DNA from: an uncultured Erysipelotrichaceae bacterium
Lineage (GTDB): Bacteria > Bacillota_I > Bacilli_A > Erysipelotrichales > Erysipelotrichaceae
Direction: 5' to 3'
DNA length: 32,000 nucleotides
Assembly (NCBI GenBank): GCA_942493105.1
Contig: OW818668.1
Location: 180,001-212,000 of the forward strand
Part shown: positions 16,075 to 29,213 of the stretch, one piece after another
How positions within the stretch are numbered: the stretch's first letter is position 1
Layout: each line of letters starts with the position of its first letter
Notes under the pieces: model-generated
The model's database searches: none
What the model was told of the DNA's origin: nothing
Seen by the model: the letters and a program-made list of their open reading frames with translations, nothing else
Made by a program: the position numbers and the translations under genes

Positions 16075-17304
16075 TTAGTCAACTAATAGTGTTAAAGGAT
16101 GTTCAATAAGATAAACTAAATCAGTTAAGAACAAGGCAGCAGGATAACCATCGATTGCTCTATGATCGAAACTGAGGCTCAAGGTCATTTTATTGACTTT
16201 GACTAAATTGTTGTTTGCATCAAATTCAACACGTTGAATCGTTCTGCCTACGCCTAAGATACACACTTCAGGGACATTGATGATCGGATTAAAATCTGTG
16301 ACGGCTGTAGTCCCCAAGGAAGTAATCGTAAAGGTTCCGCCCGTTATATCATCCGGTAACAAAGCATTGTTTTTTGGTTTGGATGTTTGAACTTTGATGG
16401 CTTTCGCTAATTCAACCAAGGATAATGCTTGTGCATTTTTAACATTAGGGACGATAAGTCCGTTGTCTAACGCAACCGCAATCCCAAGATTGACAGAAGG
16501 CAATACATGGATCCCGTCTTCTAGAGCCAAAGCATTCATATTTGGATGCTTCTTTAAGGTTTTAGCAACAAAATAAGCCAGAAGATGTGTTACTGTCAAA
16601 CGAACACCCTGTTCTTTTTCAACTTTATCCAACAATTCAGATCTAAGCTTCAACAAACCATCCACATTGACTTCCGCATTGATCGTAACGGAAGGTACTG
16701 TACTATGACTCTTTGACATTTGATCCGCAATCAATTTACGAATTCCTGTCCATGGGATGATTTTCTCTACGCCTGGTTCAACATAAGTCGATTTTGTGGA
16801 TGATGGGTTAAAATGCAACACATCCTTAAGATGAACTCTATGTAAACCTGGGGTAGATTGGAAAACAGTTTCTATACTGATGCCTTTTTCACGGGCAGCT
16901 TTACGGGCTGCAGGTGTAGCTCTTACTCCAAATCCATCGCTTGGTAAGGCTTGAGCTGAAATCGAGGTAACAGTTTGAGTTGGAGTTTGTGTCGCAACTT
17001 TTGTTTCCACAACAGGTTTCACAGGTGTATCAATTTTTGCAAGTGTTGGAGTCTCAACTTTTTCGCCGGCTTGACCAATGTGGGCAATGACTGAGTTTAC
17101 GGGAACGACTTGTCCAACTTCAATATATCGACCCAAAAGGATTCCAGCATCATAGGCTTCAACTTCAATCGCGATCTTATCGGTCATGACTTCAAAAAGA
17201 ACTTCACCGACTTTGATGGGATCGCCTACTTTTTTAAACCATTCTGTAACATGCCCTTTATCCATCGTTGAGGATAATTTGGGCATCAATACTTCTTTAG
17301 CCAT
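16075..17304 (-). CDS. dihydrolipoamide acyltransferase, E2 component
   Basis: N-terminal lipoyl domain (EVMTDKIAIEVEA, lipoyl-Lys), peripheral subunit-binding domain (RATPAARKAAREKGI) and a catalytic domain ending SFDHRAIDG. AAGGAGG RBS. Confidence 0.93.
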   Translation of the reverse strand: MAKEVLMPKLSSTMDKGHVTEWFKKVGDPIKVGEVLFEVMTDKIAIEVEAYDAGILLGRYIEVGQVVPVNSVIAHIGQAGEKVETPTLAKIDTPVKPVVETKVATQTPTQTVTSISAQALPSDGFGVRATPAARKAAREKGISIETVFQSTPGLHRVHLKDVLHFNPSSTKSTYVEPGVEKIIPWTGIRKLIADQMSKSHSTVPSVTINAEVNVDGLLKLRSELLDKVEKEQGVRLTVTHLLAYFVAKTLKKHPNMNALALEDGIHVLPSVNLGIAVALDNGLIVPNVKNAQALSLVELAKAIKVQTSKPKNNALLPDDITGGTFTITSLGTTAVTDFNPIINVPEVCILGVGRTIQRVEFDANNNLVKVNKMTLSLSFDHRAIDGYPAALFLTDLVYLIEHPLTLLVD

Positions 17305-17316
17305 AAATTGTCCTCC

Positions 17317-18300
17317 TTATTTCGCTGCCATGATTTTGCGGCAGGCTTCTACGATATCGTTGACTTGAGGAACAGCCAATTTTTCAAGATTGGGTTCATA
17401 GGGAATCGGTGTTTCTGCACCGGCTAAACGTACGATTGGATGATCTAAATAGTCAAAGGATTCTTCCTCTGAAATGACAGCGGCTAATTCTGATGAGAAA
17501 CCACTGCGTTTGACGGCTTCAGTTACAACTAAAGCACGACCTGTCTTCTTAACTGAGTCGACGATGGTTTTCTTATCGAGGGGAACCAAGGTTCTTGGAT
17601 CGACGATTTCAATATCAATGCCTTCTTTAGCTAAGATTTCAGCAGCTTCTAGAGCTTTGTGTACCATATAGGATGTCGCGATGACAGAAATATCTTTGCC
17701 TGCACGTTTGATATCGGCAACGCCGATTGGGATAAAGTACTTACCTTCTGGAACATCCCCTTTGGTTCTGTAGCAAAGTTTATGTTCATAAAACATGACA
17801 GGGTTATTGTTGGCGATGGCACTGTGCAATAAACCTTTCGCATCATAAGCCGTGGATGGTTGAATGACGATCAAGCCAGGAATATGGGCTGTCCAGTTTT
17901 CTAAAGATTGGGAATGTTGTGCAGCTGCACCAGTCCCTGATCCACCAGGTGTTCTCATGACCAAAGGAATCGTCACATTGCCGCCATACATATAGTGTAT
18001 CTTCGCAGCTTGATTGACCATTTGATCCAAAGCGATCGTTATAAAATCTGAAAATTGAAGTTCAAAGACAGGACGCATTCCTGTGATTGCTGATCCTACT
18101 GCAGCACCAGCGATGGCACTTTCAGATATGGGAGTTACTCTGATCCGCTCTGGTCCAAATTCTTCAATCATGCCTCTGGTAACGCCAAATGCTCCACCAT
18201 ATACCCCAATATCTTCACCCATGATAAAGACTCTGTCGTCTTCACGCATGGCTTCGCTAAGGGCTTCTCTTATGGCTTCTGTGTATGTTATTTCTCTCAT
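17317..18300 (-). CDS. 2-oxoacid/acetoin-type dehydrogenase E1 beta subunit
   Basis: [14 protein letters not shown]...GEDIG.YGG.F..T.G....FG.ER...TPISE and GAAAQHSQS motifs of transketolase-like E1 beta. Start moved to the ATG at 18300. The AAGGAG there overlaps the E1 alpha stop. Confidence 0.92.
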
Positions 18301-18310
18301 GGTTGGCTCC

Positions 18311-19300
18311 TTAATCCGCGTAAACGTCGACAAACAATTGATCAGCTGTTGGCTTTTCACCAGCTTCTGCGAAAGCAACGGCTGCTTCAATGGCTTCAGC
18401 GGCTTTGGCTTGAATATCATCCGCTTGGGCATCGGTTAAGAGTCCAGCTTCAATCAACTGTTTTCTGAAGTTAGCGATGGGATCGCGTTCTGATCTCCAC
18501 ATTTCTTCTTCTTCACGTGTTCTATATTTCTTAGCGTCGGATTTGGAATGTCCTTTCCAACGATAAGTCTTGGCTTCAATCAAAGTAGGACCTTCACCTT
18601 TTCGTGCACGTTCTACCGCATCATAAGTTGCATTGATGACTTCAATGAGGTTGTTTCCATCAATGGTAATGCTTGGAATTCCATAAGAAACCCCACGAAT
18701 CGAAAGATCTTTGACGTTGACCATTTCTTTGATGGATCCGCTCATTCCATACTGATTATTTTCAATAAAGAAAATAACCGGAAGTTTCCATATGGAAGCC
18801 ATATTGAGGGATTCATGGAAACTGCCTTCATTGGTTGATCCATCTCCCGCATGACACAAACAAACTTGATCTGTTTTCTTCATTTTAGCAGTCAAAGCAG
18901 CTCCAACCGCAATCGGATATCCTCCACCAACGACACCATTAGCACCAAGGTTACCGGTTTCGATTTCCGCTATATGCATGGATCCGCCTTTGCCTTTATT
19001 GGTTCCAGAAGTCTTCCCAAAAAGCTCAGCCATCATTTTATTGATGTCTGTTCCTTTGGCGATGGTTTGACCATGTCCGCGATGGGTGGCTGCCATCCAG
19101 TCGCTTTTTCTTAAGACAGCACCTGATCCAACAGCTGCTGCTTCTTCACCGACACATAAGTGGGTCGTCCCGTGAATCATGCCTTTGGCGAAAAAGTAAT
19201 CTACTTTTTCTTCAAATTGGCGAATGATCCACATCTTACGGAAGGCTTCAATGAGAGCCGCATCATCAAGATGGGCTTTGTTTGGGATTCTTTCTGACAT
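18311..19300 (-). CDS. TPP-dependent 2-oxoacid/acetoin-type dehydrogenase E1 alpha subunit
   Basis: [34 protein letters not shown] and the TPP motif GDGSTNEG...ENNQYG. From memory it is closest to AcoA/PdhA-type E1 alpha. Substrate not assignable. Confidence 0.9.
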
Positions 19301-19311
19301 AAGTGCTCCTT

Positions 19312-20697
19312 TTAAATGTGTATGGGATAACCGAGACCGGCTTCCGTATTATCCATGATGGCTTCTGAGACAGATGGATGCGGGAAGATGGTCAAGGCGA
19401 TGTCTTCTAAGGTAAGACCAGTTTCAATAGCCAAAGTGATCACAGAGATGATTTCACTGGCATTGACACCTGCGATCTGAGCTCCTAAGATCAGCTTTGT
19501 GTTTTCTTCAGAAATGATTCTTACAAAGCCTTCGGTCTTAGATGCAGCGATGGCTCTTGAATTCGCAGCCAATGGGAAATCTGTCGCAATGGCTTTGATG
19601 TTTAAAGCCAAACATTCTTCCAGAGATTTACCAGTGGTGGCAATTTCAGGGGTCGTATAACAGACTGCAGGCATGGCTTTATAATCAATTTCAACTTTAT
19701 GACCAGAGATGACTTCTGCGACGATTTTAGCTTCATAGGAAGCTTTATGAGCCAACGCAAGACCTAAGGTTATGTCTCCGATCGCATAGACTTTAGGATT
19801 GGTGGTTTTGGATTGTTTATTGACTTTAACGAAGCCTTTAGGATCGAGTTCGATACCAGAGACATTGATGTTGAGCTGATCGGTATTGGGACGTCTACCA
19901 ACGGATACCAATACAACTTCAGATTCAACGATCGTTTCAACATCACCTTTTTTATACGTCAACGCAACACGATCACTCTCTTCTTTTGAAGAAAGCACCA
20001 AGGCATCGGTCAGGATGGTTACTCCTAGTTTCGTTAAATTACGTTTAACCAAATCAGAAAGCTTGGTGTTAAAACCAGGCAAAATACCAGGTGTTGCTTC
20101 AATCAAAGTGACTTTGGTCCCAAAGGCAGCAAAAGCTTCAGCCAATTCGCAACCGATATAGCCTGCCCCAATGACACTTAAGGTTTGAGGTAAAGTGGGA
20201 ATATTTAAGATTCCTGTTGAATCAAGAATACGTTTTGAGAAAGGGGCTGCTTTGATTTCAATGGGACGACTGCCTACGGCTAAGATCGCAGTGTTGAAAC
20301 TATATTCCTCGGATTTACCATCGTTGGTTACAGTAATTGAATTCTTCGAACTGAATTTTGCTTCGCCAAATAAAACTGTGACTTTGTTTTTCTTTAGCAG
20401 TTGAGTTACACCAGATCTTAACTTCTGTACAACTTGGGTGTTTTTCCACACTTGTGTCTTTTCAAAGTCCAAGGTCGCGGTCGCATTGATCCCAAATTTA
20501 GAGGCATGCAACAGCTCTTGATAAGTATGGCCTGCCTGCAGTAAAGCTTTGGATGGAACACACCCTACGTTAAGGCATGTGCCTCCTATGACATTTCTTT
20601 CGATGAGGGTGACTTGTTGACCAAGTTGTGCTGCTCGGATGGCTGCAACATAACCTCCAGGACCAGATCCAATAATGACAGTATCTAATGCGTTCAT
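19312..20697 (-). CDS. lpd: dihydrolipoyl dehydrogenase, E3 component
   Basis: FAD fold GSGPGGY, redox disulfide GGTCLNVGCVPSK, NAD fold GAGYIGCE, C-terminal HPSVSE His-Glu dyad. Start moved to the ATG at 20697 behind GGAGAGGT. Confidence 0.93.
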   Translation of the reverse strand: MNALDTVIIGSGPGGYVAAIRAAQLGQQVTLIERNVIGGTCLNVGCVPSKALLQAGHTYQELLHASKFGINATATLDFEKTQVWKNTQVVQKLRSGVTQLLKKNKVTVLFGEAKFSSKNSITVTNDGKSEEYSFNTAILAVGSRPIEIKAAPFSKRILDSTGILNIPTLPQTLSVIGAGYIGCELAEAFAAFGTKVTLIEATPGILPGFNTKLSDLVKRNLTKLGVTILTDALVLSSKEESDRVALTYKKGDVETIVESEVVLVSVGRRPNTDQLNINVSGIELDPKGFVKVNKQSKTTNPKVYAIGDITLGLALAHKASYEAKIVAEVISGHKVEIDYKAMPAVCYTTPEIATTGKSLEECLALNIKAIATDFPLAANSRAIAASKTEGFVRIISEENTKLILGAQIAGVNASEIISVITLAIETGLTLEDIALTIFPHPSVSEAIMDNTEAGLGYPIHI

Positions 20698-20993: not shown

Positions 20994-21025
20994 AGTCAAA
21001 CTGCTTTCCACATTAATGTGGTAAA
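20994..21025 (-). promoter_or_regulatory. operator palindrome plus -35 element upstream of the E3-E1-E2 operon
   Basis: Minus strand reads TTTACCACA-TTAA-TGTGGAAA-GCAGT-TTGACT, followed after 18 nt by TTCAAT. The same module with the same spacing occurs at 29332..29363. Confidence 0.6.
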
Positions 21026-21062
21026 AGCAAACGCAAAGTTCTATACAGATTAAAAAGACAAA

Positions 21063-21704
21063 CTATTTCTTCTGTCCATAATTGTTGAATACGGCTACCG
21101 CATCAGCAATTTGATCATCAGACAGTTGCGCTATATGAGGCGACATAGATCGTGCAATCGTGTATGTTTTCGCAGCTTCTTCTAGATAAACACAGGCATA
21201 AAGTGCTTGACTTATGTCTTTTCCTACAGCGATGACCCCATGGTTTTTTAAAATGATGGCGAGTTTATCATCAAGATACTCAACAGCTTGTATACCCATA
21301 TCTAAGCTGGCAGCAGATGCATATTTGGTAACCAAAACATTACCTCTTGTTGCATTGGCCAAGGTGGTCAAACAACAAGGCAAATGATCTTCAACCAAAC
21401 CAACTGCAGTAGCATAAGGTTGATGGGTATGGATGATGGCGTTGATGTCTGGACGATGTTTAAAGATATAGAGTAAAGCTTGTGTATCGACAGACACTCG
21501 TCTTGTGCCTTCTATGACCTTGCCTTCAATATCTAACACGATGATGTCATCCTCAACCATGATTTCATACATCATGCCAGAAGGCGTGACCAATATCTTA
21601 TCTTCAAATCGGACACTGACGTTACCGCCTGATAGTGAGATCAGGTGATAACGATCCATTAAAATGCCCGTCTTGATGATTTGACGTTTGAGTTCTTCTA
21701 ACAT
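21063..21704 (-). CDS. class II aldolase/adducin-family protein (FucA/AraD/OtnC-like)
   Basis: The 213-aa protein is collinear with FucA (GNVSVR, TP.G..YE, RPD.NA.IHTH, NHG.IA.G). It carries the AraD/UlaF-like metal ligand context SVDT instead of the FucA SSE. Start moved to the ATG at 21704, overlapping the cyclase stop (TAATG). Confidence 0.8.
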   Translation of the reverse strand: MLEELKRQIIKTGILMDRYHLISLSGGNVSVRFEDKILVTPSGMMYEIMVEDDIIVLDIEGKVIEGTRRVSVDTQALLYIFKHRPDINAIIHTHQPYATAVGLVEDHLPCCLTTLANATRGNVLVTKYASAASLDMGIQAVEYLDDKLAIILKNHGVIAVGKDISQALYACVYLEEAAKTYTIARSMSPHIAQLSDDQIADAVAVFNNYGQKK

Positions 21705-22513
21705 TACACAATGGCCAATGGGACAACCGGGGTTCCTGTTGCACCTACAAATTTCATAGGATAACACATCAAAGTAAACACATAAACCTTATCTTTAGCC
21801 AATTCATCCAACTTCATATTTTCAATCATCGTGATCCCATCTACCACAAATAAATAGATATGAGCCCAATGAGTCGATCCGGTTTTTGGATCGAGTTCTT
21901 CAGGGATATCCCAAGAGAGCTGATCGACTCCAAATACGATGGGTTTGAATGTTCTGACCCAAGCACTGGCTTCACCATTAATACCTGCATATTTTAGAAA
22001 TTCTTTATTGTCATGCCACAAAGTATCATAGCCTGTTCGAACGATGATCGCATCACCTTCTTGGATGGTCACATTTTGAGCTTTCGCTGTTTCAATTAAA
22101 TCTTGAGCTGTGATGGCATAACGATTGGGCAGAACTGAAACACCTTTATAGGCAGCCACATCCAACATAACAGCACGTGCCATGATGGGCTCTAGTTCTT
22201 CTGCACCGTGGCTTGTGAAGCCTTTAGGGGTCTCAATAAGGTTGGTGACTTTAACATCACCATGCATGGTCAAATCAAGCGCCTGATGACATAGTGCATC
22301 CATGTGTGTCCCAGAATGATCATTCATGATGAAGAAACCATTAGCAGTAGAACGGGGACCTTTTGAATCAGGGAAGTATCCAGCCACATGACCTCTTGAG
22401 ATAAAGTAGTCATAATGAGGACGATGATGAGGATAAACCGGCATACCAATATAACGAGGCTGTTCAAGATTATAAATTTTTCTCTTCTTCAATTCATTTA
22501 GAAATAGTTCCAT
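21704..22513 (-). CDS. putative-cyclase family metal-dependent hydrolase (kynurenine formamidase-like fold)
   Basis: HSGTHMDALCH matches the HxGTHxDxPxH zinc motif of the putative-cyclase family (Pfam PF04199 from memory). AAGGAG RBS. Confidence 0.75.
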   Translation of the reverse strand: MELFLNELKKRKIYNLEQPRYIGMPVYPHHRPHYDYFISRGHVAGYFPDSKGPRSTANGFFIMNDHSGTHMDALCHQALDLTMHGDVKVTNLIETPKGFTSHGAEELEPIMARAVMLDVAAYKGVSVLPNRYAITAQDLIETAKAQNVTIQEGDAIIVRTGYDTLWHDNKEFLKYAGINGEASAWVRTFKPIVFGVDQLSWDIPEELDPKTGSTHWAHIYLFVVDGITMIENMKLDELAKDKVYVFTLMCYPMKFVGATGTPVVPLAIV

Positions 22514-22531
22514 ATTTTTCTCCTTGTTTGA

Positions 22532-23179: not shown

Positions 23180-23513
23180 TTATTCTCCTTTTTTTGATGG
23201 TCATCTCTGCCAAATTAAATCAAATGTAATATCTCTTATAAAATCTTCTCATCTTTCTTAAATTCATCGGTTGATTCTAGTGAACATTTTTTAAAATCAC
23301 TTACTTATTTAAAAAAATCTCGCCTTTCAACCAACAGTTTTCAGTTATGCTCATATAAGCTAATTTTTAATGAACATTTGTGGTAAAAATGCCTTAAATT
23401 ATTCACTAAGTTGTTCCTTATTTCTCAATTGTATCATACCTAAACCTGTTGAGATACTCATGTAATGTCTAGTCATAAAGTGTTCATTTAATATGGTCCA
23501 TGTTCATAAGTTG

Positions 23514-23542
23514 AAAAAAACCACGTATCATTTCGTGGTTTT
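23514..23542 (-). terminator. rho-independent terminator after the lipoyl transferase gene
   Basis: Minus strand reads AAAACCACG-8 nt-CGTGG followed by TTTTTTT. It could also terminate plus-strand transcripts weakly (T4). Confidence 0.8.
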
Positions 23543-23556
23543 AATCGTAGTTATGC

Positions 23557-24279
23557 TTATTGGGTATGAGCAGGAATCCCACTCTTATGCAAGATCTGGA
23601 TCATGTTTTCTTTGACATCCGCAACTGAAATGGTTCTATGAGTCAATGCACTGATGGTTTCCATGGATTGTAGATCGATAAGTGGATATTTGGGATCTTT
23701 TAAAGGATTAGCTAAGTCATAGAAGCTTTTGATCAGTGCACAACGTTTCTGTTGATTTCCGCTGACACATATCGTTATCATCAGCATTACCGCCTCTTTG
23801 CTTCGATATTGTGCCATTCCCGCAAACTTCTTTCCATTGACAGATAGATCATATTTTCCTGGGCAATAGGAATTTATAATTTCACCTTCTTGGATGTCTA
23901 GATGATAATCATGAAGTAAATGATGCAACAGTTGAACTCCAAAATCATAGGATTCATTCAACCCTCCAATCAACGGACACTCTTTAGAAAACAGAATACT
24001 TAGGTTTAATATCCCTTGATCACATACCACAGCTAAACCGCCTGCTTTACGTACAGAAGTTTTATATCCGCTATTTTGAAGGCTTTTGAGTCCCTTTTCA
24101 AACTCAGGTAACAGTGTATCCATCTTACCTAGAATAACACCCTGGGTGCTCCAAAAACGCACAATCAAGGTCTGTGGATTCAAGGTGTTGGCTAAGGTTT
24201 TATCAGTAAGAAGTTGGTTTTCTAAATCGACGTGTTGATCAATGATCGTCACACTTTTGAAATGTTGGTAAAGGTTCAT
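23557..24279 (-). CDS. LplA/LipM/LipL-family lipoyl/octanoyl transferase (catalytic domain only)
   Basis: RKAGGLAVVCDQGILNLS and SYCPGKYDLSVNGKKFAGMAQYR (Cys plus Lys motif of the octanoyl/lipoyl transferase clade). 240 aa, with no C-terminal LplA accessory domain. No convincing SD. Confidence 0.75.
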   Translation of the reverse strand: MNLYQHFKSVTIIDQHVDLENQLLTDKTLANTLNPQTLIVRFWSTQGVILGKMDTLLPEFEKGLKSLQNSGYKTSVRKAGGLAVVCDQGILNLSILFSKECPLIGGLNESYDFGVQLLHHLLHDYHLDIQEGEIINSYCPGKYDLSVNGKKFAGMAQYRSKEAVMLMITICVSGNQQKRCALIKSFYDLANPLKDPKYPLIDLQSMETISALTHRTISVADVKENMIQILHKSGIPAHTQ

Positions 24280-24315
24280 GTGTCTACAGTATACCCCAAG
24301 TCTTTCAGTTCACCT

Positions 24316-24345
24316 AATAAAAAGGCTGTCTCGGAAGACAGCCTT
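24316..24345 (-). terminator. rho-independent terminator ending the PTS operon
   Basis: Minus strand reads AAGGCTGTCT-TCCG-AGACAGCCTT followed by TTTTATT. Confidence 0.88.
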
Positions 24346-24348
24346 AGC

Positions 24349-24843
24349 TTATTTTGTTTTGATGAATGAGCGTTGTTTAAAGTTTTTCATCATCGGATGC
24401 TTGAGTTCAACCAAACTTTCAAGGAAAGCCTGAAGCTCTAAACCTTGACCAAACTGTTCGATTTGAAGCCAATATCTGCCTTTGGTTAAGCCTGCACCAT
24501 TGATCCGAACATAGATGCTTTTTGAGAAAGCAGTCTTGCGGATATTGATGCGTTGGATCTCTTCAAAGGTGTAATGATGATGCCTTCCAAAACAAGAGAA
24601 TTCAATGGATTGATCTGTGGTCTTGACTTTTTCAGGATGAGACAAAGACAGGTAATGATCCAGAAAGATGATCAAGGCCAAAACGGCGATGGGCACACTA
24701 TAGGATGTTGCCTTATTTGTCAAAACTTCAAAGATCATGATCAGAAAGACCAAAGCAGACAGAATCGTAGGGACATAGATCCCAAACATCGATTTCTGAG
24801 TGGTGTATTGATAGACTTTGTTCAAGTTGTCCTCTTTCAGCAT
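24349..24843 (-). CDS. small membrane protein: TM hairpin plus about 95-aa cytoplasmic domain, unknown function
   Basis: Two hydrophobic helices (IYVPTILSALVFLIMIF, VPIAVLALIIFL) then a soluble beta-rich domain. The architecture resembles bacterial PH-domain (YdbS-like) proteins, but that is only an architectural guess. Weak RBS; ATG at 24843. Confidence 0.55.
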   Translation of the reverse strand: MLKEDNLNKVYQYTTQKSMFGIYVPTILSALVFLIMIFEVLTNKATSYSVPIAVLALIIFLDHYLSLSHPEKVKTTDQSIEFSCFGRHHHYTFEEIQRINIRKTAFSKSIYVRINGAGLTKGRYWLQIEQFGQGLELQAFLESLVELKHPMMKNFKQRSFIKTK

Positions 24844-24858
24844 CAATCACATATTGGA

Positions 24859-26208
24859 TTAAGCTTGTTTAGCAATACGTTTGAAGTTGATGAAAGCCAT
24901 GACGCCAGTGATGGCAGTCAAGATGCCTAAACCAATCCATCTGAAGTTCATGAGTTGAACGAAAGCCCAGCTCAATGGTGAAGCTCCATCAGCAATACTT
25001 GAAATCAGGTCAGCACCTACAGGCAAGGTGAAGTTAGCAGCAACAGCAGCTTCGGTCAATAACGGAGCAATACCAGTTGCGATCCACAAGCCAGTAACAA
25101 CGATGAAGATACCAACAACTAAAGTTCTGAATAAATCGCCTTTAGTAATAGGAACAACCAAGACAAACAAGAAAGGCAATACCGCTAAGTCAGCAAACGG
25201 CAAGAACTGATTGCCTGGCAAAATAGCAGCGATCAAGACGGATAACGGAACAAGGATCAAAGAAACAGCCAAGGTTGTCGGATGACCGATACCTACAGCA
25301 GCATCCAAACCGATATAGATCTTGGTGTTGGATTTGAAATGTTTTTCAACGAATTCAGAAGCAGCATCAGAAATAGGAATCAAACCTTCCATGAGTAATC
25401 CAGCCATCTTAGGAATAAGAACCAAAGCAGCACCCATGGTGATACCCAAGGATAAGAAGCCTTTCAAATCGTAACCAGCTAAGACACCGATAATGGCACC
25501 TAAGACTGTTCCGACCAAGATCGGTTCGCCAAAGATTCCAAATTTCTTCTGAACAGCAACAGCATCCATATTGATTTTGTTGATGCCTGGGATATAATCC
25601 AAGATTTTATTGATGACTAAAGCCACAGGAACAAACGCTACTGATAATCCGTGAGGAATAGAAACGCCTGGTAAACCACAGTATTCTTCAACGCCTTTAG
25701 CAGTCCAGTCAGCCAAGATCAATGTCATGGCAGCTTGAATTGCAGCTGTTGCTAAACCAAAGACCAAGTCATTGGTAGCAAAATAAACCAAAGAACCTGT
25801 GAATGCATAATGCCAGAAGTTCCAAACGTCAATATTGACTGTTTGAGTCGTTTTGGTCAAGATCATAACAAAGTTGACAGCTAATGCAACAGGAATAACC
25901 AAAGCCCCTACATTGGTCGCAAACGCGATGGCTGCAGCTGCAGGCCACCCAACATCAATAACAGTTAAGCTTAAGCCATAATTCGTAACCATTTGTTGAA
26001 CGGCTGGGCCTAAGTTTCCACCCAACATCCCAATAACCAAATTCAAACCAATGAAACCAACGCCAACCGTTAGACCGGCTCTAATGGCCTTGCCTGGTTT
26101 TGCGCCCATGATCAAACCGATAAGGGTAATAACGATCGGCATCATGACTGATGAACCTAAGCCTACGACAAAGTTTATGCCATCCATAATGACTTTAAAA
26201 ATGTCCAC
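24859..26208 (-). CDS. PTS EIIC, L-ascorbate (UlaA/SgaT) family
   Basis: A 449-aa polytopic membrane protein whose size and glycine-rich hydrophobic pattern fit SgaT/UlaA permeases. It sits immediately after the cognate IIA and IIB genes. Confidence 0.85.
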   Translation of the reverse strand: MDIFKVIMDGINFVVGLGSSVMMPIVITLIGLIMGAKPGKAIRAGLTVGVGFIGLNLVIGMLGGNLGPAVQQMVTNYGLSLTVIDVGWPAAAAIAFATNVGALVIPVALAVNFVMILTKTTQTVNIDVWNFWHYAFTGSLVYFATNDLVFGLATAAIQAAMTLILADWTAKGVEEYCGLPGVSIPHGLSVAFVPVALVINKILDYIPGINKINMDAVAVQKKFGIFGEPILVGTVLGAIIGVLAGYDLKGFLSLGITMGAALVLIPKMAGLLMEGLIPISDAASEFVEKHFKSNTKIYIGLDAAVGIGHPTTLAVSLILVPLSVLIAAILPGNQFLPFADLAVLPFLFVLVVPITKGDLFRTLVVGIFIVVTGLWIATGIAPLLTEAAVAANFTLPVGADLISSIADGASPLSWAFVQLMNFRWIGLGILTAITGVMAFINFKRIAKQA

Positions 26209-26237
26209 AATTTTCTCCTTTTTTGTGTTTGTGTTGT

Positions 26238-26531
26238 CTACTTAAGACCTAATGACTCGAGTATATCTTGTAAAACTGGTTCAGTACCCCGACCTATAAG
26301 AAAAGCCACACCCATAATTACTTTGACCGGCATCGGTTTGCTGTTATGCGCCGTTGTGACGATCAAATCATATTTTGAAGCCTTAGACTCCATCTCTGCA
26401 ACTGTACAGGTTGATACTTCTACCAAATCACCAAAGCCTCTCTCTTTAAAGATATTTTCTAGCTTTTTAGCGACGGCAACGGATGTAGCAACGCCTGTAC
26501 CACAAGCAACCAGTACTCTTTTCTTAATCAT
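26238..26531 (-). CDS. PTS EIIB, ascorbate/lactose-type (UlaB-like)
   Basis: MIKKRVLVACGTGVATS carries the active-site Cys in a P-loop-like context. 97 aa. Start moved to the ATG at 26531 behind AAAGGAGGGTG. Confidence 0.88.
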   Translation of the reverse strand: MIKKRVLVACGTGVATSVAVAKKLENIFKERGFGDLVEVSTCTVAEMESKASKYDLIVTTAHNSKPMPVKVIMGVAFLIGRGTEPVLQDILESLGLK

Positions 26532-26550
26532 GCACCCTCCTTTCTTTTCA

Positions 26551-27012
26551 TCAAGCAATTTGAGCACTCATCAGCGCATAGAGCGCCTCAGGAGTGGCTG
26601 CTTCCTTAATTTGGGTCAGCAAGCTTTCGTTTTGGATCATATCCATCAAACTTTGCAAGACTGACATATGCGAATGCGATTCTTTTAAGGCCAACATAAA
26701 CATGACTTCAACGTCGATCAGTTCATCATGATTGCCCATCATACGAAACTGAACCGGATTTTTTAAAGTTGCGACAGCCAAGACCGACGTGTTGACGTAG
26801 CAAGGATCCGCATGTGGAATCGCTACCCCTCGGCCAAATCCTGGCAAACCTGTTGAGAATTCTGCTTCTCGATCAAGAATCGCCTGAATGAAAGTATCCT
26901 TTACATAGCCTTCTGCTTTTAACTTTTCAGCTAAGATCACTAAGGCTTCATCCGCGTTTTGAGCTTCAATATTCAATAAGATAACTTTTGAATTGAATAG
27001 AGATGCGCTCAT
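26551..27012 (-). CDS. PTS EIIA, mannitol/fructose/Ntr-type (UlaC-like)
   Basis: 153 aa with GVAIPHADP phospho-His motif. ATGA overlap with the upstream mini-gene. Confidence 0.88.
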   Translation of the reverse strand: MSASLFNSKVILLNIEAQNADEALVILAEKLKAEGYVKDTFIQAILDREAEFSTGLPGFGRGVAIPHADPCYVNTSVLAVATLKNPVQFRMMGNHDELIDVEVMFMLALKESHSHMSVLQSLMDMIQNESLLTQIKEAATPEALYALMSAQIA

Positions 27013-27206
27013 TTGGATGCTTCTTCCGCAACGATCAGTGTTGCCTTAAATTCACTGGGTGTAAAAGATATGGATTGGTTTTCCGCAAGTCTGCGTAAAC
27101 CAGTTCCTGTAATGTCTGCCATTTTAAACGTATATTCTTTGTGGTCTTCGCCGACAATCACGCCAGCACCTTTAACCAAACTATAGAATTTCACGATGCC
27201 CTTCAT
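27009..27206 (-). CDS. 65-aa cold-shock-domain-like OB-fold protein with degenerate RNP motifs
   Basis: Collinear with CspB (GIVKFY..VKGAGVIV......EYTFKMADI.G.G...L.ENQSISF). RNP1 KGFGFI is KGAGVI and RNP2 VFVHF is YTFKM. Good RBS (GAGAGG). The stop overlaps the EIIA start (ATGA). Confidence 0.65.
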   Translation of the reverse strand: MKGIVKFYSLVKGAGVIVGEDHKEYTFKMADITGTGLRRLAENQSISFTPSEFKATLIVAEEASK

Positions 27207-27260
27207 AGTTACCTCTCTTTATGACTTCTTTAATGCAACTTCTATTTCACAGCGTGAAAT

Positions 27261-29213
27261 TTAACTGCTTAATAAAACTTCACTGATGGCTTGTGCCACT
27301 TCTTCTTTATCCTTCATTGAACAGATTCGATTCCATAGGGCTAAGTCATCACTGTGATCGGCCAAATGACTGAAGAATGGGATCGTATCAGATGCATCTT
27401 CTTTGGTTGAGACTACGTTGAGGATCATTTTGACCTCAACATCTTTTTCCCAAAGGACGGGATGTGTCAGGATGACCACTTGGATACAACTTCTTAAGAC
27501 ATAAGCGAAGTCACCATGAGGAATCGCAATCATCGATGAGATGACAGTAGGTCCCAAAGCTTCTCTCTCAAGCATGCTTTCCAGATAACCTTCAGTAACG
27601 AGTTTACGTTTACTTAAAGTCTGATTTAAGAAATATAAGACATCTTCTTTGGTTTTCAGATCGACATTTAAGTGGATATCGTCTTTGGTGATCGCAGCTT
27701 TAGTAGGTGCAAATGTTTTCTTGCCTTCTACGATTTCTCGGATGGCATTCATATCGTACTGTGGTAGTAAAGGATTGATGATGATCGTTTTGATCTTCGA
27801 TTGAATGGCCACCGTTGAGATGATCAGATCGATCTTTGATTCATCGTAACTATCAACGTCCATCGTAGAGGTCACATCGACGATCTCAAGGTTATTGAAA
27901 GCGCGTTTTAGTTTCGCCACAATGAGTTGAGATGTTCCTAATCCGCTGGCACACATAACTAAGGTCCGGATCGGTTTGATATTGCGTTCTCTGGCTGCTG
28001 CAAAGTGTAAGACCAGATAAGCAATTTCATTGGGTGGCATTTCAATGTGGAACATAGATTTAAACAAAGATACATGGTTGGCTATGGCTTGATAGATCGT
28101 AGGATAGGAGAATTTAATCTCTTCAAACATTGGATTCTCTAGAGATAGCCCATAAAGCAGGCGGTTAATGGTGGGTTTAAGATGTAGGATCAAACTATTG
28201 AACAGTTGCGTATCTGTTTCTAGAAACAGATTGAGTTCCATTTGAACATTCTGGATGAATTTTAAGATGAGATCTTCTAGGACAGGTGTATCTGATGAGA
28301 GCTTGAAGTTAAAGACATTAAGACCTTCTTTAATACGTTTGGCTCCCATAAAATGAAGCAAGATATAATAGGTTTCTGTTTCAGATAAAACAACATTGAA
28401 GACAGAGTTGATGCGTTGAGCGGTTTCTAAGGCAATGGCGTATTCTTCTTGATGGTCTAGGGCTTGAATCAATTCGTCGGTCAAACGAATGTTGTTGCCT
28501 TGTTTTGTACGTCTTATCGCAATTGCGATGTGGATGATCAAGTTGATCCTGGCTTCCATAGAGAAGGAATAGCCTAACTTGATTTCTGATTCCGCTACGA
28601 TCTCTTCGACTTTCTTATAATCCAGTTGAAGTGACTCTTCAAAACGATTGACGAAGGAATGAGAACGGCGATCTGTGTTGTCTTGGTTGTAGTAAACAAG
28701 ATTCTTGTTTTCTTCAAAGGGGACAAGCTTAGCCATTGCTTTACGCTTATTGCTTTCTTCCCCAACAATCACAGTGCCTTCACCTTTTAAATATTCAATG
28801 ACTAAGTTGAAGTCTGCTAACATCGCATTGAGTTCACTGATGTCTTTGGTGATCGTAGAACGGCTGACATAATAGTCTAAACCCAGTTCTTTGATCATAA
28901 GCGGTCGGTTTTCCGCAAACAATTTCGATAAGATCGAACGTTGTCTTTCTTGAGGGGTTAAATAACTGGTATCTCTGCGAGTTTTAAAGGTAGATAGCAA
29001 TTGTTGTTTATCACTGGGATCCCCTTCAATGGTGATACCTTGACCCGGTTTTTTGATCATGACCAAATGATGATCTTGAAGGATGGGTTCTATCAGATCT
29101 AATTCATTGCGAACTGTCTTGGGTGAACTGTTGACTGCTTTGGCGATCAAGTCAACACTGACCAGATTCTTTTCACTCAGGATGAATTTAACGATATCTT
29201 CTTTTCTGTTCAT
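27261..29213 (-). CDS. PRD-domain transcriptional regulator of the MtlR/LicR/ManR class (HTH-HTH-PRD-PRD-EIIB-like-EIIA-like)
   Basis: N-terminal winged-HTH pair, two PRD-like helical regions with conserved His (LILHL, LVLHFAAA), an EIIB(Gat)-like LVMCASGLGTSQ and an EIIA-like AIPHGDF. Start moved to the ATG at 29213 behind GAGGAG. Confidence 0.88.
   Translation of the reverse strand: MNRKEDIVKFILSEKNLVSVDLIAKAVNSSPKTVRNELDLIEPILQDHHLVMIKKPGQGITIEGDPSDKQQLLSTFKTRRDTSYLTPQERQRSILSKLFAENRPLMIKELGLDYYVSRSTITKDISELNAMLADFNLVIEYLKGEGTVIVGEESNKRKAMAKLVPFEENKNLVYYNQDNTDRRSHSFVNRFEESLQLDYKKVEEIVAESEIKLGYSFSMEARINLIIHIAIAIRRTKQGNNIRLTDELIQALDHQEEYAIALETAQRINSVFNVVLSETETYYILLHFMGAKRIKEGLNVFNFKLSSDTPVLEDLILKFIQNVQMELNLFLETDTQLFNSLILHLKPTINRLLYGLSLENPMFEEIKFSYPTIYQAIANHVSLFKSMFHIEMPPNEIAYLVLHFAAARERNIKPIRTLVMCASGLGTSQLIVAKLKRAFNNLEIVDVTSTMDVDSYDESKIDLIISTVAIQSKIKTIIINPLLPQYDMNAIREIVEGKKTFAPTKAAITKDDIHLNVDLKTKEDVLYFLNQTLSKRKLVTEGYLESMLEREALGPTVISSMIAIPHGDFAYVLRSCIQVVILTHPVLWEKDVEVKMILNVVSTKEDASDTIPFFSHLADHSDDLALWNRICSMKDKEEVAQAISEVLLSS

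Follow-up and report, generated by a model that had tools for sequence, protein, structure and literature searches.

Organization of the locus

The locus lies in a 32 kb stretch of DNA from an uncultured Erysipelotrichaceae bacterium (hereafter the window), and all 14 of its genes were recovered on the minus strand, where their positions equal or closely approach those given in a preliminary description of this DNA (16075-29213). They form three modules: a phosphotransferase system (PTS) operon (module A), a lipoyl transferase with a dehydrogenase complex (module B), and a trio of a UlaD-like decarboxylase, a cyclase-family hydrolase and an aldolase-fold enzyme that separates the two parts of module B (module C; Table 1). 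The loci used for comparison (numbered with the prefix L) were all taken from metagenome-assembled genomes (MAGs) or contigs of metagenomes; several of them, such as L100-102, nearly duplicate one another.

Table 1. Genes and signals of the locus in window coordinates, listed in the direction of transcription
Feature	Coordinates	Strand	Characteristics
Module A	24349 to 29213	-	PRD regulator, small ORF, IIA, IIB, IIC, p165
PRD-containing transcriptional regulator	27261..29213	-	HTH_11/Mga HTH, two PRD stretches, EIIB-like and EIIA_2 domains
65-aa ORF	27009..27206	-	weak cold-shock-domain likeness: PF00313 20.4 bits (gathering score 27)
PTS EIIA (EIIA_2 type)	26551..27012	-	PF00359 2.1e-38
PTS EIIB (Lac/Gat type)	26238..26531	-	PF02302 3.9e-13
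PTS EIIC, galactitol (Gat) family	24859..26208	-	TIGR00827 4e-148, 494 bits (cut-off 542)
p165	24349..24846	-	165 aa, two predicted transmembrane helices and a soluble domain
Intrinsic terminator, end of PTS operon	24322..24345	-	10-bp stem and U-run; -15.2 kcal/mol, z = -5.05
Module B	23557-24279 and 16075-20696	-	lipT and E3-E1alpha-E1beta-E2
lipT, LipL/LipM-like lipoyl (octanoyl) amidotransferase	23557..24279	-	PF21948 1.5e-26
Intrinsic terminator after lipT	23518..23541	-	8-9 bp stem, 8-nt loop, U7; -13.6 kcal/mol, z = -4.48
AT-rich spacer upstream of trio	23180..23517	-	promoter-like TATGATACAAT segment, four TGAACA/TGTTCA repeats
Module C (trio)	21063-23179	-	decarboxylase, hydrolase, aldolase-fold enzyme
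UlaD-like 3-keto-L-gulonate-6-phosphate decarboxylase (OMPDC suprafamily)	22532..23179	-	PRK13306 246 bits (cut-off 250); UlaD equivalog 241 bits
Cyclase-family metal-dependent hydrolase	21704..22513	-	PF04199 9.7e-24
Class II aldolase/epimerase-fold protein	21063..21704	-	213 aa; PF00596 2.9e-44
Conserved element upstream of E3	20994..21032	-	GTTTGCTTTTACCAC-N6-GTGGAAAG then TTGACT
E3 dihydrolipoyl dehydrogenase	19312..20696	-	TIGR01350 508 bits (cut-off 409)
E1alpha, TPP-dependent, mitochondrial-PDH/AcoA ('y') type	18311..19300	-	PF00676 3e-90; TIGR03182 370 bits (cut-off 394)
E1beta	17317..18300	-	PRK09212 391 bits (cut-off 321); Met start 18300
E2 dihydrolipoyl acyltransferase	16075..17304	-	PF00198 1.3e-71, PF00364, PF02817
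Intrinsic terminator, end of dehydrogenase operon	16044..16067	-	after E2; -13.1 kcal/mol, z = -5.99

Strong intrinsic terminators follow p165, lipT and E2; that of lipT had been overlooked by an automatic scan, and none of 200 shuffles was equally stable. The gap between the aldolase-fold gene and E3 contains none, as the preliminary description had maintained, and the terminator after E2 is the first one downstream of the trio. The same description had noted that UlaG and UlaE are missing, and this too is borne out: the 32 kb window encodes neither a Lactamase_B nor an AP_endonuc_2 protein, and tblastn searches of it with a UlaE and a PTE lactonase from related loci returned zero matches.

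A Gat-type PTS operon

Module A is an inducible Gat-family PTS belonging to a widespread yet uncharacterised operon family of Firmicutes. The gene content first proposed for the locus stands except for its assignment of this PTS to the Asc family, which we reject: galactitol TIGR00827 is the sole NCBIfam match of the EIIC, and no ascorbate IIC model matches it. Against NF006919, genuine Asc-type IICs of related loci reach 344-390 bits, and searches with them found nothing in the window at E<=1e-3. The EIIB (Met start at 26531, picked from the translation) likewise has the galactitol IIB model NF007643 as its sole NCBIfam match, and the best specific models for the EIIA are fructose and galactitol IIA, every one under its cut-off. 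The regulator, with an in-frame ATG at 29213, matches PRD (1.4e-36) and PTS_EIIA_2 (4.7e-26) in Pfam, along with HTH_11, Mga and PTS_IIB; this MtlR/LicR/UlaR-type protein is an activator and not an RNA antiterminator. The regulator is 94% and 77% identical to its counterparts in L004 and L093, where the 65-aa ORF is also kept within the PTS operon (86% and 78%).

Although p165 matched no family in Pfam or NCBIfam, it is the constant partner of this Gat-type IIC, its homologues lying directly 3' of the Gat IIC and 5' of an aldolase gene in L084, L100 and L171-173. The EIIC shares 58-60% identity with the IICs of the last three, which are Firmicutes PTS-p165-aldolase operons. Members of the operon family, with the order PRDreg-IIA-(FBA-TIM-YjbQ)-IIB-IIC(Gat)-p165-aldolase, occur in Thermoanaerobacterium, Acidilutibacter and Pectinatus; the gene that normally follows p165 there encodes a class II aldolase-fold protein from the subfamily represented in the window.

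A dehydrogenase complex accompanied by a lipoyl transferase

Module B is a lipoamide complex of the PDH/acetoin-dehydrogenase type with its own LipL-like transferase. The latter matches NF053589 (182 bits) and NF047857 (154 bits), both under cut-off, and the PDB entries 2p5i and 2p0l. In relatives the module usually carries a SorC regulator too: lipT lies directly upstream of (SorC-)E3/E1 in L091, L093-096 and L103, with the order lipT-SorC-E3-E1-E2 in L091, L094-096 and L103. This recurrence agrees with the earlier suggestion that the transferase is part of a self-contained module. As read from the sequence, E3 starts at the ATG at 20696 with GGAGAGG ahead of it. The E2 has lipoyl, E3-binding and 2-oxoacid_dh catalytic domains and scores under the cut-off of each NCBIfam equivalog. 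A bkd-like E1 can be rejected because the E1alpha scores 225 bits against human PDH E1alpha and 145 against BCKDH (Geobacillus PDH, 133). The E3-first gene order had been taken to be that of bkd and not of pdh operons; this rule is unreliable, as the pdh operon of S. mutans, pdhD-pdhA-pdhB-pdhC, has E3 first like the complex in the window (PMC5462986), and relatives with ~69% E1alpha identity, treated here as orthologues, have E3 last.

Enzymes of the trio

The UlaD-like protein aligns with E. coli KGPDC (1kv8; E = 4.7e-50) with identity at D11, E33, D62, K64, D67, E112, H136, R139 and T169, which we take to be the KGPDC-specific residues of work from the Gerlt laboratory. The cyclase-family protein matched no NCBIfam model; its HxxxHxDxxxH metal site is intact (H66-x3-H70-x-D72-x3-H76), and H66, H70, D72, H76, H218 and E231 are invariant across 65 homologues. 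5IBZ is the top match in a PDB sequence search (2.4e-21) and in a Foldseek search with an AF2 model of pLDDT 82 (7.7e-17, TM 0.74), followed in the latter by isatin hydrolases, cyclase-phosphotriesterase and KFases. This structure (MGS0169) is a metal-dependent carboxylesterase, and its family includes trans-dienelactone hydrolase (PMC5341072).

Of 10 contexts that could be interpreted, 8 place the cyclase gene beside one for a UlaD-like protein (a distant homologue adjoins zwf-opcA). It lies within Asc-type PTS operons of four other genomes, all four without UlaG; UlaE is present in L084 and L086. Given its intact metal site and the metal-dependent esterase that is its nearest relative of solved structure, the cyclase is well supported, though unproven, as an ascorbate-6-phosphate-type lactonase, and the proposal of the preliminary description that it replaces the usual lactonase is probably correct. 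It may instead catalyze another hydrolysis, such as a de-esterification: L086 and L088 combine an Asc PTS and the cyclase with a PTE lactonase present or absent, and the occurrence of this PTE-type phospho-sugar lactonase alongside the cyclase would fit such a reaction.

The true start of the aldolase-fold gene, at 21704, shares 1 nt with the cyclase stop. The product of this gene falls in a Firmicutes subfamily that is large but uncharacterised, with 2071 homologues at E<=1e-20; its best NCBIfam model is PRK06557 'L-ribulose-5-P 4-epimerase' (177 bits, cut-off 251), and in the PDB it matches FucA (105 bits) and AraD (89 bits). Set against what we take to be the E. coli reference sequences, it has Asn at the catalytic Asp120 site of AraD and lacks both the AraD-specific insertion and Tyr113 of FucA, which makes an epimerase assignment weak; judged by these residues, it is neither canonical AraD nor canonical FucA.

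Evolutionary and functional implications

The closest relative is the Erysipelotrichaceae MAG L004 (WSYG01000039), which is collinear with the window (cyclase 97% identical at the protein level; DNA ~79-88% over aligned blocks) and has lost the aldolase. The promoter-like TATGATACAAT of the spacer upstream of the trio is kept in its alignment; the TGAACA/TGTTCA motif shows no window-wide enrichment. L093 has the order PRDreg-csp-IIA-IIB-IIC-p165-lipT-E3-E1a-E1b-E2 without the trio, and its lipT-E3 spacer is merely 360 bp. The GTTTGCTTTTACCAC..GTGGAAAG-TTGAC element is common to all three loci, lying in that spacer in L093 and in the aldolase-E3 gap in the window and L004. Module C has thus been inserted into the ancestral lipT-E3 spacer. 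The hairpin of this element has no U-run behind it, and the stability of the region does not exceed that of shuffles (z = -0.35); the element probably comprises an operator and a -35 box serving the dehydrogenase operon, kept after the insertion.

The cassette that forms module C is portable, occurring by itself or within Asc-type PTS/UlaE operons. The trio stands alone in L003 and L005, as does the UlaD-cyclase pair in L006; the trio adjoins Asc-IIC/IIB/SorC in L001, and L084 has PRDreg-AscIIC-IIB-UlaE-UlaD-cyclase. Neither these loci nor L086 and L088 contain UlaG. In L003 and L005 the flanking genes encode a nitroreductase and fn3 proteins. The PTS here is Gat-type, but that found with the cyclase elsewhere is Asc-type, so the importer serving module C may lie beyond the window.

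We therefore favor, with a probability of roughly 0.55, the view that the locus is a mosaic of three modules lying side by side in the genome of a gut-type Erysipelotrichaceae bacterium, each conserved separately. In module C, the cyclase, as a Zn/Mn hydrolase, would act on L-ascorbate-6-phosphate, or on a phospho-lactone closely related to it, by opening the lactone ring, the step performed on L-ascorbate-6-phosphate by UlaG in E. coli; the UlaD-like enzyme would decarboxylate the resulting 3-keto-L-gulonate-6-phosphate to L-xylulose-5-phosphate, which the aldolase-fold enzyme would convert in one step to an intermediate of the pentose phosphate pathway. This last reaction would most likely be 4-epimerisation to D-ribulose-5-P, making UlaE unnecessary. 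Such a bypass may exist: it fits the distribution, with the aldolase present where UlaE is absent, but the residue differences from AraD tell against it, as do the canonical AraD and the UlaE-like gene beside the trio in L001. Module B, its E2 lipoylated by the adjacent transferase, would start from pyruvate or from an alpha-hydroxyketone to which the PTS substrate gives rise, and the acyl-CoA that it makes would most likely be acetyl-CoA.

L004, L093 and L171-173 make it less likely, though still conceivable, that the E1 complex is fed by the product of the aldolase. A single integrated pathway of all 14 genes is not supported: read-through past the aldolase could couple the trio and the dehydrogenase genes, which would then be co-transcribed, and the aldolase family also neighbors SorC and an E complex in L084 and L097-104, but adjacency of the trio and the E complex is limited to the window and the aldolase-less L004, L093 lacks the trio altogether, and elsewhere the trio or pair occurs alone or with Asc-type PTSs. 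The single catabolic locus envisaged at the outset is thus not one conserved unit, as its gene adjacency is largely not conserved in relatives.

The association that does recur is that of module B with a polyol-type PTS, to which it is physically linked in nearly every case. Among relatives whose upstream flank extends for 5 kb or more, 12 of 12, representing at least 5 E1alpha lineages, have a Gat- or Gut-type PTS next to module B, whether or not the trio is present; a PTS also adjoins it in Brevibacillus laterosporus B9. This recurrent link between a PTS and a dehydrogenase complex is unexplained and of interest.

Organization of the locus

All 14 genes previously named in this locus were recovered, and all lie on the minus strand of the window, whose G+C content is about 39%. 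They comprise a phosphotransferase (PTS) module (a regulator, a 65-aa csp-like ORF, IIA, IIB, IIC and the membrane protein p165), a trio encoding a UlaD-like decarboxylase, a cyclase-family hydrolase (hereafter the cyclase) and a class II aldolase-fold protein, and an E complex (E3, E1alpha, E1beta and E2) with an accompanying lipoyl transferase gene, lipT. The regulator is a MtlR/LicR/UlaR-type activator. The genes for p165, the lipoyl transferase and E2 are each followed by a good intrinsic terminator and the aldolase-fold gene is not, which gives three or four transcription units: the regulator with the PTS genes, lipT, and the trio, from which read-through into E3-E2 may occur. The earlier statement that no convincing terminator lies between the trio and the dehydrogenase genes therefore stands, the first one downstream of the aldolase-fold gene being that after E2.

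Features of the window discussed in the text
Feature	Coordinates	Strand	Description
Regulator	27261-29213	-	HTH_11/Mga, PRD, EIIB-like and EIIA_2 domains
ORF after regulator		-	65 aa; cold-shock-domain score 20.4 bits against a cut-off of 27, sub-threshold
IIB	start Met at 26531	-	
p165	24349-24846	-	165 aa; two predicted transmembrane helices and a soluble domain; no Pfam or NCBIfam family
lipT	23557-24279	-	240 aa, short; LipL/LipM-like; passes PF21948 (94 bits)
UlaD-like gene	22532-23179	-	KGPDC-type decarboxylase
Cyclase gene	21704-22513	-	PF04199
Aldolase-fold gene	21063-21704	-	start at 21704 overlaps cyclase stop by one base
Element 5' of E3	21032-20994	-	conserved in L093 and L004
E complex	16075-20696	-	E3 start 20696; E1beta start 18300
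TGAACA/TGTTCA copies	23270-23510		lipT-ulaD spacer
Inverted ATGAACA pair	29207-29309		flanks regulator start
c-di-GMP-I riboswitch	29526-29605	+	RF01051, 70 bits, E = 5e-12
fn3-domain gene	29693-31084	+	463 aa
Stretch absent from L004	~29416-31143		riboswitch and fn3 gene
S8 subtilase, nitroreductase-family protein, fn3-containing protein	12331-15837	-	fn3-containing protein of 305 aa
Orphan EIIB and amidohydrolase	10527-12228	-	EIIB of sorbose/mannose family (PF03830)
cdaA, cdaR, glmM	2588-6436	-	c-di-AMP operon

UlaG-like, UlaE-like, PTE-like and SorC-like genes, as well as an Asc-type IIC, are all missing from the 32-kb window. The claimed absences of UlaG and UlaE hold at this scale: there is no Lactamase_B-type protein among the ORFs of the window and no AP_endonuc_2 protein, and a tblastn search with the UlaE of locus L084 was negative (L numbers denote comparison loci, mostly from metagenome-assembled genomes or metagenome contigs). 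Rfam and tRNA scans detected no RNA element inside the locus. Four TGAACA/TGTTCA copies in the spacer between lipT and the UlaD-like gene, and an inverted ATGAACA pair flanking the regulator start, are possible operator sites. We rejected the motif as a shared operator: its copies cluster 5' of the trio, but across the window the 12 occurrences of ATGAACA (10.4 expected) amount to no enrichment. Elsewhere the window carries a canonical c-di-AMP operon with cdaA (DAC domain), cdaR (YbbR) and glmM (phosphoglucosamine mutase).

Our overall reading is that the locus probably encodes a pathway resembling the Ula system of ascorbate utilization, with a putative non-orthologous lactonase and without UlaE, embedded in a conserved and unexplained association of a PTS with a dehydrogenase complex. 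The proposal that all 14 genes form a single undescribed pathway is unsupported because the adjacency of the trio and the complex, on which the preliminary description had itself made that proposal depend, is not conserved in relatives.

A dehydrogenase complex joined to polyol-type phosphotransferase systems

E1alpha is of the mitochondrial-PDH/AcoA type, scoring 225 bits with human PDH E1alpha, 145 with BCKDH and 133 with Geobacillus PDH. E3 (508 bits against 409) and E1beta (391 against 321) exceed curated cut-offs, whereas E1alpha (370 against 394) and E2 (257 against 445) fall below those of the PDH equivalogs. The likeness to bkd operons formerly read from the E3-first order does not hold up, as E1alpha is nearer to PDH than to BCKDH, ptb and buk are absent, the S. 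mutans pdh operon has the order pdhD-A-B-C (PMC5462986), and relatives with about 69% identity in E1alpha carry E3 last. The lipT product is below the cut-offs of both LipL equivalogs (182 bits against 400 and 154 against 450), and its gene is syntenic with the E complex in at least six relatives. That the complex and lipT constitute a module of their own was borne out by the recurrence of lipT-SorC-E3-E1-E2 in relatives.

Searching metagenome contigs with E1alpha yielded 80 loci, the close relatives being 69-89% identical. Among these the order lipT-SorC-E3-E1a-E1b-E2 is seen in L091, L092, L094-096 and L103, and SorC-E1a-E1b-E2-E3 in L097-105 and L110. In all 12 informative loci, those with at least 5 kb of upstream sequence, a polyol-type PTS lies directly upstream. 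It is of the Gat type in L093, L097, L099-102, L104 and L110, often together with a Zn-ADH and an SDR, and of the Gut type in L094, L096, L103 and L105, all of which have a divergent DXR-like oxidoreductase (PF21135, 6e-58). The PTS-linked loci span at least five E1alpha lineages, and a single lineage with 95% identical E1alpha carries either a Gat (L097) or a Gut (L105) system. More distantly, the order in L156 is SorC-E1a-E1b-E2-IIA-IIB-IIC(Gat), SorC-E1a-E1b of L086 adjoins EI-HPr and an Asc PTS, and a locus of Brevibacillus laterosporus B9, recovered by a search of a plasmid collection with E1alpha, has IIA-IIB-IIC(Gat)-PRD/EIIA regulator-E1a-E1b-E2-E3-SorC. This pairing of a PTS with a dehydrogenase complex is itself the conserved, unexplained feature that the preliminary description missed, and we found no description of PTS-linked PDH/Aco-type complexes in the open-access literature.

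In the four Gut-type loci (in L096 at 3251-15051) GutM, IIC and IIBC stand in series with lipT-SorC-E3-E1a-E1b-E2, and neither a sorbitol-6-P dehydrogenase nor a Gut IIA was seen in them; this set would fit the catabolism of a branched or deoxy polyol. In L096 a split transketolase lies downstream of the Gut PTS and the E complex. A SorC pseudogene between the aldolase-fold gene and E3 of the window was considered and rejected, as the 20-residue, 40% match to one SorC protein (E = 0.057 when four sequences were searched, E = 8.2 with tblastn) is not convincing, and such a relic is unnecessary because L093 is also without SorC.

Module B, that is the E complex with lipT, resembles known PDH and acetoin dehydrogenase clusters (S. 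mutans pdhDABC, streptococcal acoABCL-lplA, and the Pelobacter aco cluster with acoS) in its heterotetramer-type E1alpha/beta of the 'y' clade, an E2 with one lipoyl domain, E3 and an adjoining lipoyl-attachment gene, and it shares the leading position of E3 with S. mutans pdh. It departs from them in its transferase, which resembles LipL and is not an LplA or LipA, in the SorC-family regulator of its relatives, and in its systematic joining to Gat- or Gut-type PTS genes, which to our knowledge has not been described for such clusters.

These likenesses bear on the alternative that the complex is a plain pyruvate dehydrogenase of the streptococcal pdhD-A-B-C type with LipL, its position among sugar genes being meaningless, and that the trio is a remnant of a ula system whose UlaG, UlaE and Asc PTS are encoded elsewhere. 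Its E3-first order, the E1beta that passes the PDH subfamily cut-off, the E3 that passes its equivalog and the nearest E1alpha structure, that of human PDH, are all in keeping with this, as are the occurrence of the trio in unrelated contexts in L003, L005 and L006, in the manner of a stray cassette, and the fact that the visible part of the genome is 32 kb. We nevertheless regard it as unlikely. The adjacency of complex and PTS holds in every informative locus and in Brevibacillus, and since the PTS family, the PTS position and the E3 position all vary, it points to selection rather than inherited synteny. A regulator of the sugar-phosphate SorC type is usually attached, two subunits fail the PDH equivalog cut-offs, and UlaG is absent from all cyclase-containing Asc-type loci that we examined. 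Homologues with 65-72% identity are also present, under a generic name, in Vagococcus and Enterococcus, genera that have a separate pdhABCD.

A galactitol-family phosphotransferase system

The IIC of the window belongs to the galactitol family, TIGR00827 (4e-148, 494 bits) being its only NCBIfam match. The preliminary description was thus largely right as to genes and terminators but wrong in its 'Asc' label, which is probably explained by the Pfam family PF03611 spanning both Gat and Asc systems. The Asc-type IICs of L084, L001, L086 and L088 score 344-390 bits with NF006919 and never match TIGR00827, and as tblastn queries they matched neither the window IIC nor anything else in the window. 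At the family level the module fits the Firmicutes galactitol PTS (GatABC, TC 4.A.5): IIA, IIB and IIC are separate, IIC fits the GatC model (PF03611, 3.6e-87), the only match of IIB is GatB, and the regulator is of the PRD/Mga type with EIIA and EIIB domains, as in Gat operons. Galactitol specificity is not supported, as the TIGR00827 score lies below the cut-off of 542 bits, gatD, gatY and gatZ are absent, and the module, unlike GatABC operons, has no galactitol-1-P dehydrogenase, tagatose kinase or GatYZ.

What marks its family instead is p165 together with an aldolase-fold enzyme of PF00596, joined in other genera by FBA, TIM and YjbQ. Aldolase homologues with 62-65% identity end the PTS operons of Thermoanaerobacterium thermosaccharolyticum, Acidilutibacter cellobiosedens and Pectinatus frisingensis, in the order PRD/Mga regulator, IIA, (FBA, TIM, YjbQ), IIB, IIC(Gat), p165, aldolase, and the core IIC(Gat)-p165-aldolase recurs in a second operon of L084 and in L097, L100-102 and L104. 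This common core makes the first transcription unit of the window a member of the same operon family, from which it differs in having the aldolase-fold gene behind the cyclase gene rather than behind p165. The operons of the three named species (L171, L172 and L173, respectively, that of A. cellobiosedens being in CP035282) are uncharacterised; their regulator is of the PRD/Mga or sigma-54/PRD type, the FBA-type class II aldolase belongs to PF01116 and the TIM is a paralogue. We found no description in the literature of an operon combining a Gat PTS with aldolase, TIM and YjbQ. In the window, L084, L100 and L171-173 p165 always follows immediately on the Gat-type IIC, and it may be an accessory PTS component. 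The window also has an orphan sorbose/mannose-family EIIB adjoining an amidohydrolase, the IIC, IID and IIA of that family being absent from the window.

The trio and its insertion beside the dehydrogenase genes

The cyclase and its companions occur in diverse settings.

Gene contexts of the cyclase in comparison loci
Locus	Context
L003, L005	UlaD-like, cyclase and aldolase alone between nitroreductase and fn3 genes
L006	UlaD-like and cyclase only
L002	Trio at contig start
L001/L007	Asc-IIC, HAD, IIB, SorC, then trio; upstream operon with canonical AraD, UlaE-like gene and split transketolase
L084/L085	PRD regulator, Asc-IIC, IIB, UlaE, UlaD, cyclase
L086/L087	PRD regulator, different aldolase II, IIA, IIB, Asc-IIC, cyclase; beside Asc PTS, PTE, UlaD, UlaE
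L088	Like first operon of L086, plus PTE-type 'phospho-furanose lactonase' homologue

The closest locus, L004 (an Erysipelotrichaceae MAG, WSYG01000039), encodes a cyclase 97% identical at the protein level, with DNA about 79-88% identical over aligned blocks and the same gene order as the window. Here (10805-11200) the aldolase-fold gene is cleanly absent and the cyclase stop is joined to the E3-upstream spacer, indicating a precise deletion in L004 or, alternatively, a gain in the window. L004 is also without the c-di-GMP riboswitch and fn3 gene upstream of the regulator; in the window the riboswitch lies in the divergent spacer beside the PTS regulator and precedes the fn3-domain gene. At the far end of the locus the window has genes for an S8 subtilase, a nitroreductase-family protein and a further fn3-containing protein. 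In L003 and L005 the trio lies between nitroreductase and fn3 genes in the opposite orientation, so this neighbourhood may be a hot spot for the cassette.

L093 has the order regulator-csp-IIA-IIB-IIC-p165-lipT-E3-E1a-E1b-E2 (E1alpha 80% and IIC 93% identical to those of the window), with a spacer of 360 bp between lipT and E3 and without trio, aldolase or SorC. The element GTTTGCTTTTACCAC-N6-GTGGAAAG, followed by TTGAC, is conserved 5' of E3 in L093, L004 and the window. Its presence in the trio-less L093 places the trio inside an ancestral lipT-E3 spacer. The trio has its own promoter-like segment, conserved with L004, and a separate control region for the dehydrogenase operon has probably survived. 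The hairpin within the element lacks a U-tract and shows no unusual stability, and read-through from the trio into E3 is possible. Capture of the dehydrogenase promoter by the trio was rejected, the similarity of the lipT-proximal spacer of L093 to the trio promoter region of the window (about 55%) being too weak; of the spacer comparisons, only that of the E3-proximal element is sound.

This arrangement allows an integrated scheme to be weighed, in which the PTS imports a lactone or keto-sugar, the trio degrades it, and a small keto product of the aldolase is oxidised to an acyl-CoA by the AcoA-like complex. It draws on the lack of a terminator before E3, the lipoyl transferase embedded in the locus, the retention of the arrangement in L004, and the neighbours of the aldolase family in L084, L097, L100-102 and L104, namely Gat PTS-p165 and SorC with the E complex. 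Against it, L004 lost precisely the aldolase while keeping the UlaD-like gene, the cyclase and the E complex; L093 joins the PTS, p165, lipT and the E complex with neither trio nor aldolase; L001, L002, L003 and L005 have the trio, and L006 the UlaD-cyclase pair, with neither an E complex nor a Gat PTS; the aldolase-PTS operons L171-173 are without the E complex; and the operator- or -35-like element 5' of E3 predates the insertion. The formerly proposed hand-off from aldolase to E1 is weakened accordingly by L004, L093 and L171-173, and the integrated scheme appears quite unlikely to us.

A cyclase-family hydrolase as a probable replacement for the ascorbate lactonase

The cyclase matches PF04199 with 84.6 bits against a gathering threshold of 23.1, no NCBIfam model matches it, and a look-up by exact sequence found no record of it. 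Across 65 aligned homologues the metal motif H66-x3-H70-x-D72-x3-H76, H218 and E231 are invariant. An AlphaFold (AF2) model built with these 65 sequences reached a pLDDT of 82 (a run with 16 sequences, with a pLDDT of 66 and the metal-site region unmodelled, was discarded), and all 34 of its Foldseek matches at E ≤ 1e-3 are PF04199-fold hydrolases. The best solved relative is 5IBZ, both by sequence (2.4e-21) and by fold (7.7e-17, TM 0.74). The protein in that structure, MGS0169, belongs to the cyclase-like family and is a metal-dependent carboxylesterase stimulated by Mn2+; PF04199 also includes the trans-dienelactone hydrolase of Pseudomonas reinekei (PMC5341072). Both cut ester or lactone bonds rather than amides and so provide a precedent for a lactonase role. 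The cyclase shares the fold of MGS0169, whose H286 and E299 are equivalent to H218 and E231, but is only about 23% identical to it and has His-His-Asp-His where MGS0169 has Gln-Gln-Asp-His; its phosphosugar-catabolism context sets it apart from both enzymes. Its automatic JGI name, kynurenine formamidase, was rejected: by sequence KFase structures match only at E ~3e-4, by fold they rank below the esterase and isatin hydrolases, and the neighbours of the cyclase are PTS, UlaD and aldolase genes, with no tryptophan or kynurenine context.

Cyclases with at least 58% identity form about 15 protein clusters in a collection of 5.8 billion proteins, the next identity being at most 51%. Of ten interpretable contexts (the window and L004 counted), the cyclase gene touches a UlaD-like gene in eight and lies inside an Asc-type PTS operon in four. 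UlaG was found in none of the cyclase contexts examined, including the Asc-type loci L001, L084, L086 and L088, and in such operons the cyclase occupies its place. L084 is the cleanest case, having all Ula functions except the lactonase and UlaF, plus the cyclase. On this contextual evidence the cyclase is a candidate lactonase for L-ascorbate-6-P or a related lactone phosphate, in agreement with the earlier suggestion that it replaces the missing lactonase, and this is the best-supported new idea to come from the analysis. We found no description of a PF04199 enzyme in ascorbate-type operons in the open-access literature, and the plasmid collection contained no close homologue of the cyclase.

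In every comparison (with L003, L005, L006, L002, L001 and L084) the cyclase is far more conserved than its cassette neighbours: identities of cyclase, aldolase and UlaD-like protein are 90%, 72% and 63% with L003 and 74%, 62% and 51% with L001. This could mean that the cyclase is strongly constrained or that the cassette has undergone mosaic recombination. Distant homologues (30-48% identity) occur in mixed contexts, with zwf-opcA, AKR, aldolase II, aminotransferase, MFS and D-Glu cyclase genes, and we rejected them as a functional guide on account of this heterogeneity, the support that they lend to a lactonase role being weak. One of them, P0072 (JGI 3300047160), lies directly 5' of zwf-opcA on one metagenome contig, and in Conexibacter (L015, 9899-11490) the stop of the cyclase homologue and the start of a class II aldolase-fold gene overlap; the two cyclase homologues are about 39-46% identical to the window cyclase. 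These contexts hint that both sugar-lactone chemistry and the cyclase-aldolase pairing predate the Firmicutes clade.

The companion decarboxylase scores 246 bits with PRK13306 (cut-off 250) and 241 bits with the UlaD equivalog, and aligns to E. coli KGPDC (1kv8) with E = 4.7e-50. D11, E33, D62, K64, D67, E112, H136, R139 and T169 are identical in the two proteins, so that the Mg and Lys residues are kept along with E112, H136, R139 and T169, which we take, from work of the Gerlt laboratory, to distinguish KGPDC from hexulose-phosphate synthase.

It is very improbable, in our estimation, that the cyclase instead performs some other hydrolysis or cyclisation of a PTS-derived phosphosugar (for example acyl or formyl removal) in a cassette whose substrate is not ascorbate-like: its closest characterised relative is indeed an acetyl-esterase, L086 and L088 have a PTE-type phospho-furanose-lactonase homologue beside it, and aminotransferase, AKR and MFS genes are among the heterogeneous neighbours of its distant homologues, but it is tightly paired with a decarboxylase keeping all KGPDC-specific residues, it stands where the lactonase step is missing in the Asc PTS-UlaE-UlaD-cyclase operon of L084, and kynurenine, isatin and aromatic-catabolism genes are absent from the window.

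The aldolase-fold protein has the AraD-like HTH...H metal ligands, an Asp at the FucA-E73/AraD-D76 position and a C-terminal Tyr, together with non-canonical residues (Asn at AraD Asp120, Thr at FucA Tyr113) and no AraD insertion, in a comparison with the E. coli sequences. It stays below cut-off with every NCBIfam model for epimerases and aldolases, and its catalytic residues are mixed between epimerase and aldolase types; it is a separate subfamily, and a large one (2071 matches at E ≤ 1e-20). Members follow either UlaE-less UlaD cassettes or Gat PTS operons without an isomerase, and these two settings are consistent with a single enzymatic step acting on a pentulose-5-phosphate, for example L-xylulose-5-P. 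The earlier idea that this enzyme is an epimerase bypassing UlaE is plausible.

Set against the Ula/Sga system (ulaABCDEF-ulaG in E. coli and, in S. pneumoniae, a ula operon with UlaR as its PRD regulator), the locus shares a KGPDC-type decarboxylase with all catalytic residues, a PRD-type regulator, a phosphorylated substrate delivered by a PTS and a class II aldolase-fold enzyme in the UlaF position, and other genomes supply a further link in cyclases encoded inside genuine Asc-type PTS/UlaE/UlaD operons. It differs in having a PF04199 cyclase-fold hydrolase instead of the metallo-beta-lactamase-fold lactonase UlaG, in the absence of UlaE from the window, in an aldolase-fold enzyme that is not canonical AraD/UlaF, and in an adjacent PTS that is Gat rather than Asc. 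Phospho-sugar lactonases of the PTE family (amidohydrolase superfamily) in Listeria, Bacillus and Mycoplasma have reportedly been described by the Raushel laboratory. They parallel our proposal as non-UlaG lactonases of PTS operons, and a homologue adjoins the cyclase in L086 and L088, but they have a TIM-barrel amidohydrolase fold and none is encoded in the window.

Implications

A PDH/acetoin-type complex with a LipL-like transferase and SorC is joined to Gat or Gut PTSs in at least six lineages. This link is hard to explain by redox because polyol fermentation needs less NADH, not more, which leaves either a novel regulatory link between PTS-derived pyruvate and acetyl-CoA formation or a new substrate for this enzyme class. 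One improbable but far-reaching version of the latter is that the lipoamide/TPP complex is not a PDH but the catabolic enzyme of its adjacent PTS, cleaving a PTS-generated phospho-alpha-hydroxyketone to acetyl-CoA and a triose or tetrose phosphate. The substrate would be, for example, a 1-deoxy-2-ketose phosphate such as 1-deoxy-D-xylulose-5-P (an oxidative reversal of DXS). Together the PTS and its acetoin-dehydrogenase-like complex would make up a hitherto undescribed route for branched polyols or deoxy-sugars, and in the Gut-type versions, which have the DXR-like oxidoreductase, methylerythritol could be broken down by way of MEP and DXP. In this reading the locus would also supply, in the cyclase-fold enzyme, the first ascorbate-6-P lactonase outside the MBL fold and, in the aldolase-fold enzyme, a 4-epimerase of L-xylulose-5-P that bypasses UlaE. 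The large, uncharacterised family of Gat PTS-p165-aldolase operons is present in the cultured and tractable Thermoanaerobacterium, Pectinatus and Acidilutibacter.

Should the cyclase prove to be the lactonase, there would be two unrelated ways of carrying out the first committed step of anaerobic ascorbate breakdown, and the 'kynurenine formamidase/cyclase family' label that thousands of proteins of gut Firmicutes bear would be wrong for the cyclase clade. As current rules seek UlaG and UlaE, ascorbate-type fermentation would then be under-called in Erysipelotrichaceae, Lachnospiraceae and Oscillospiraceae.
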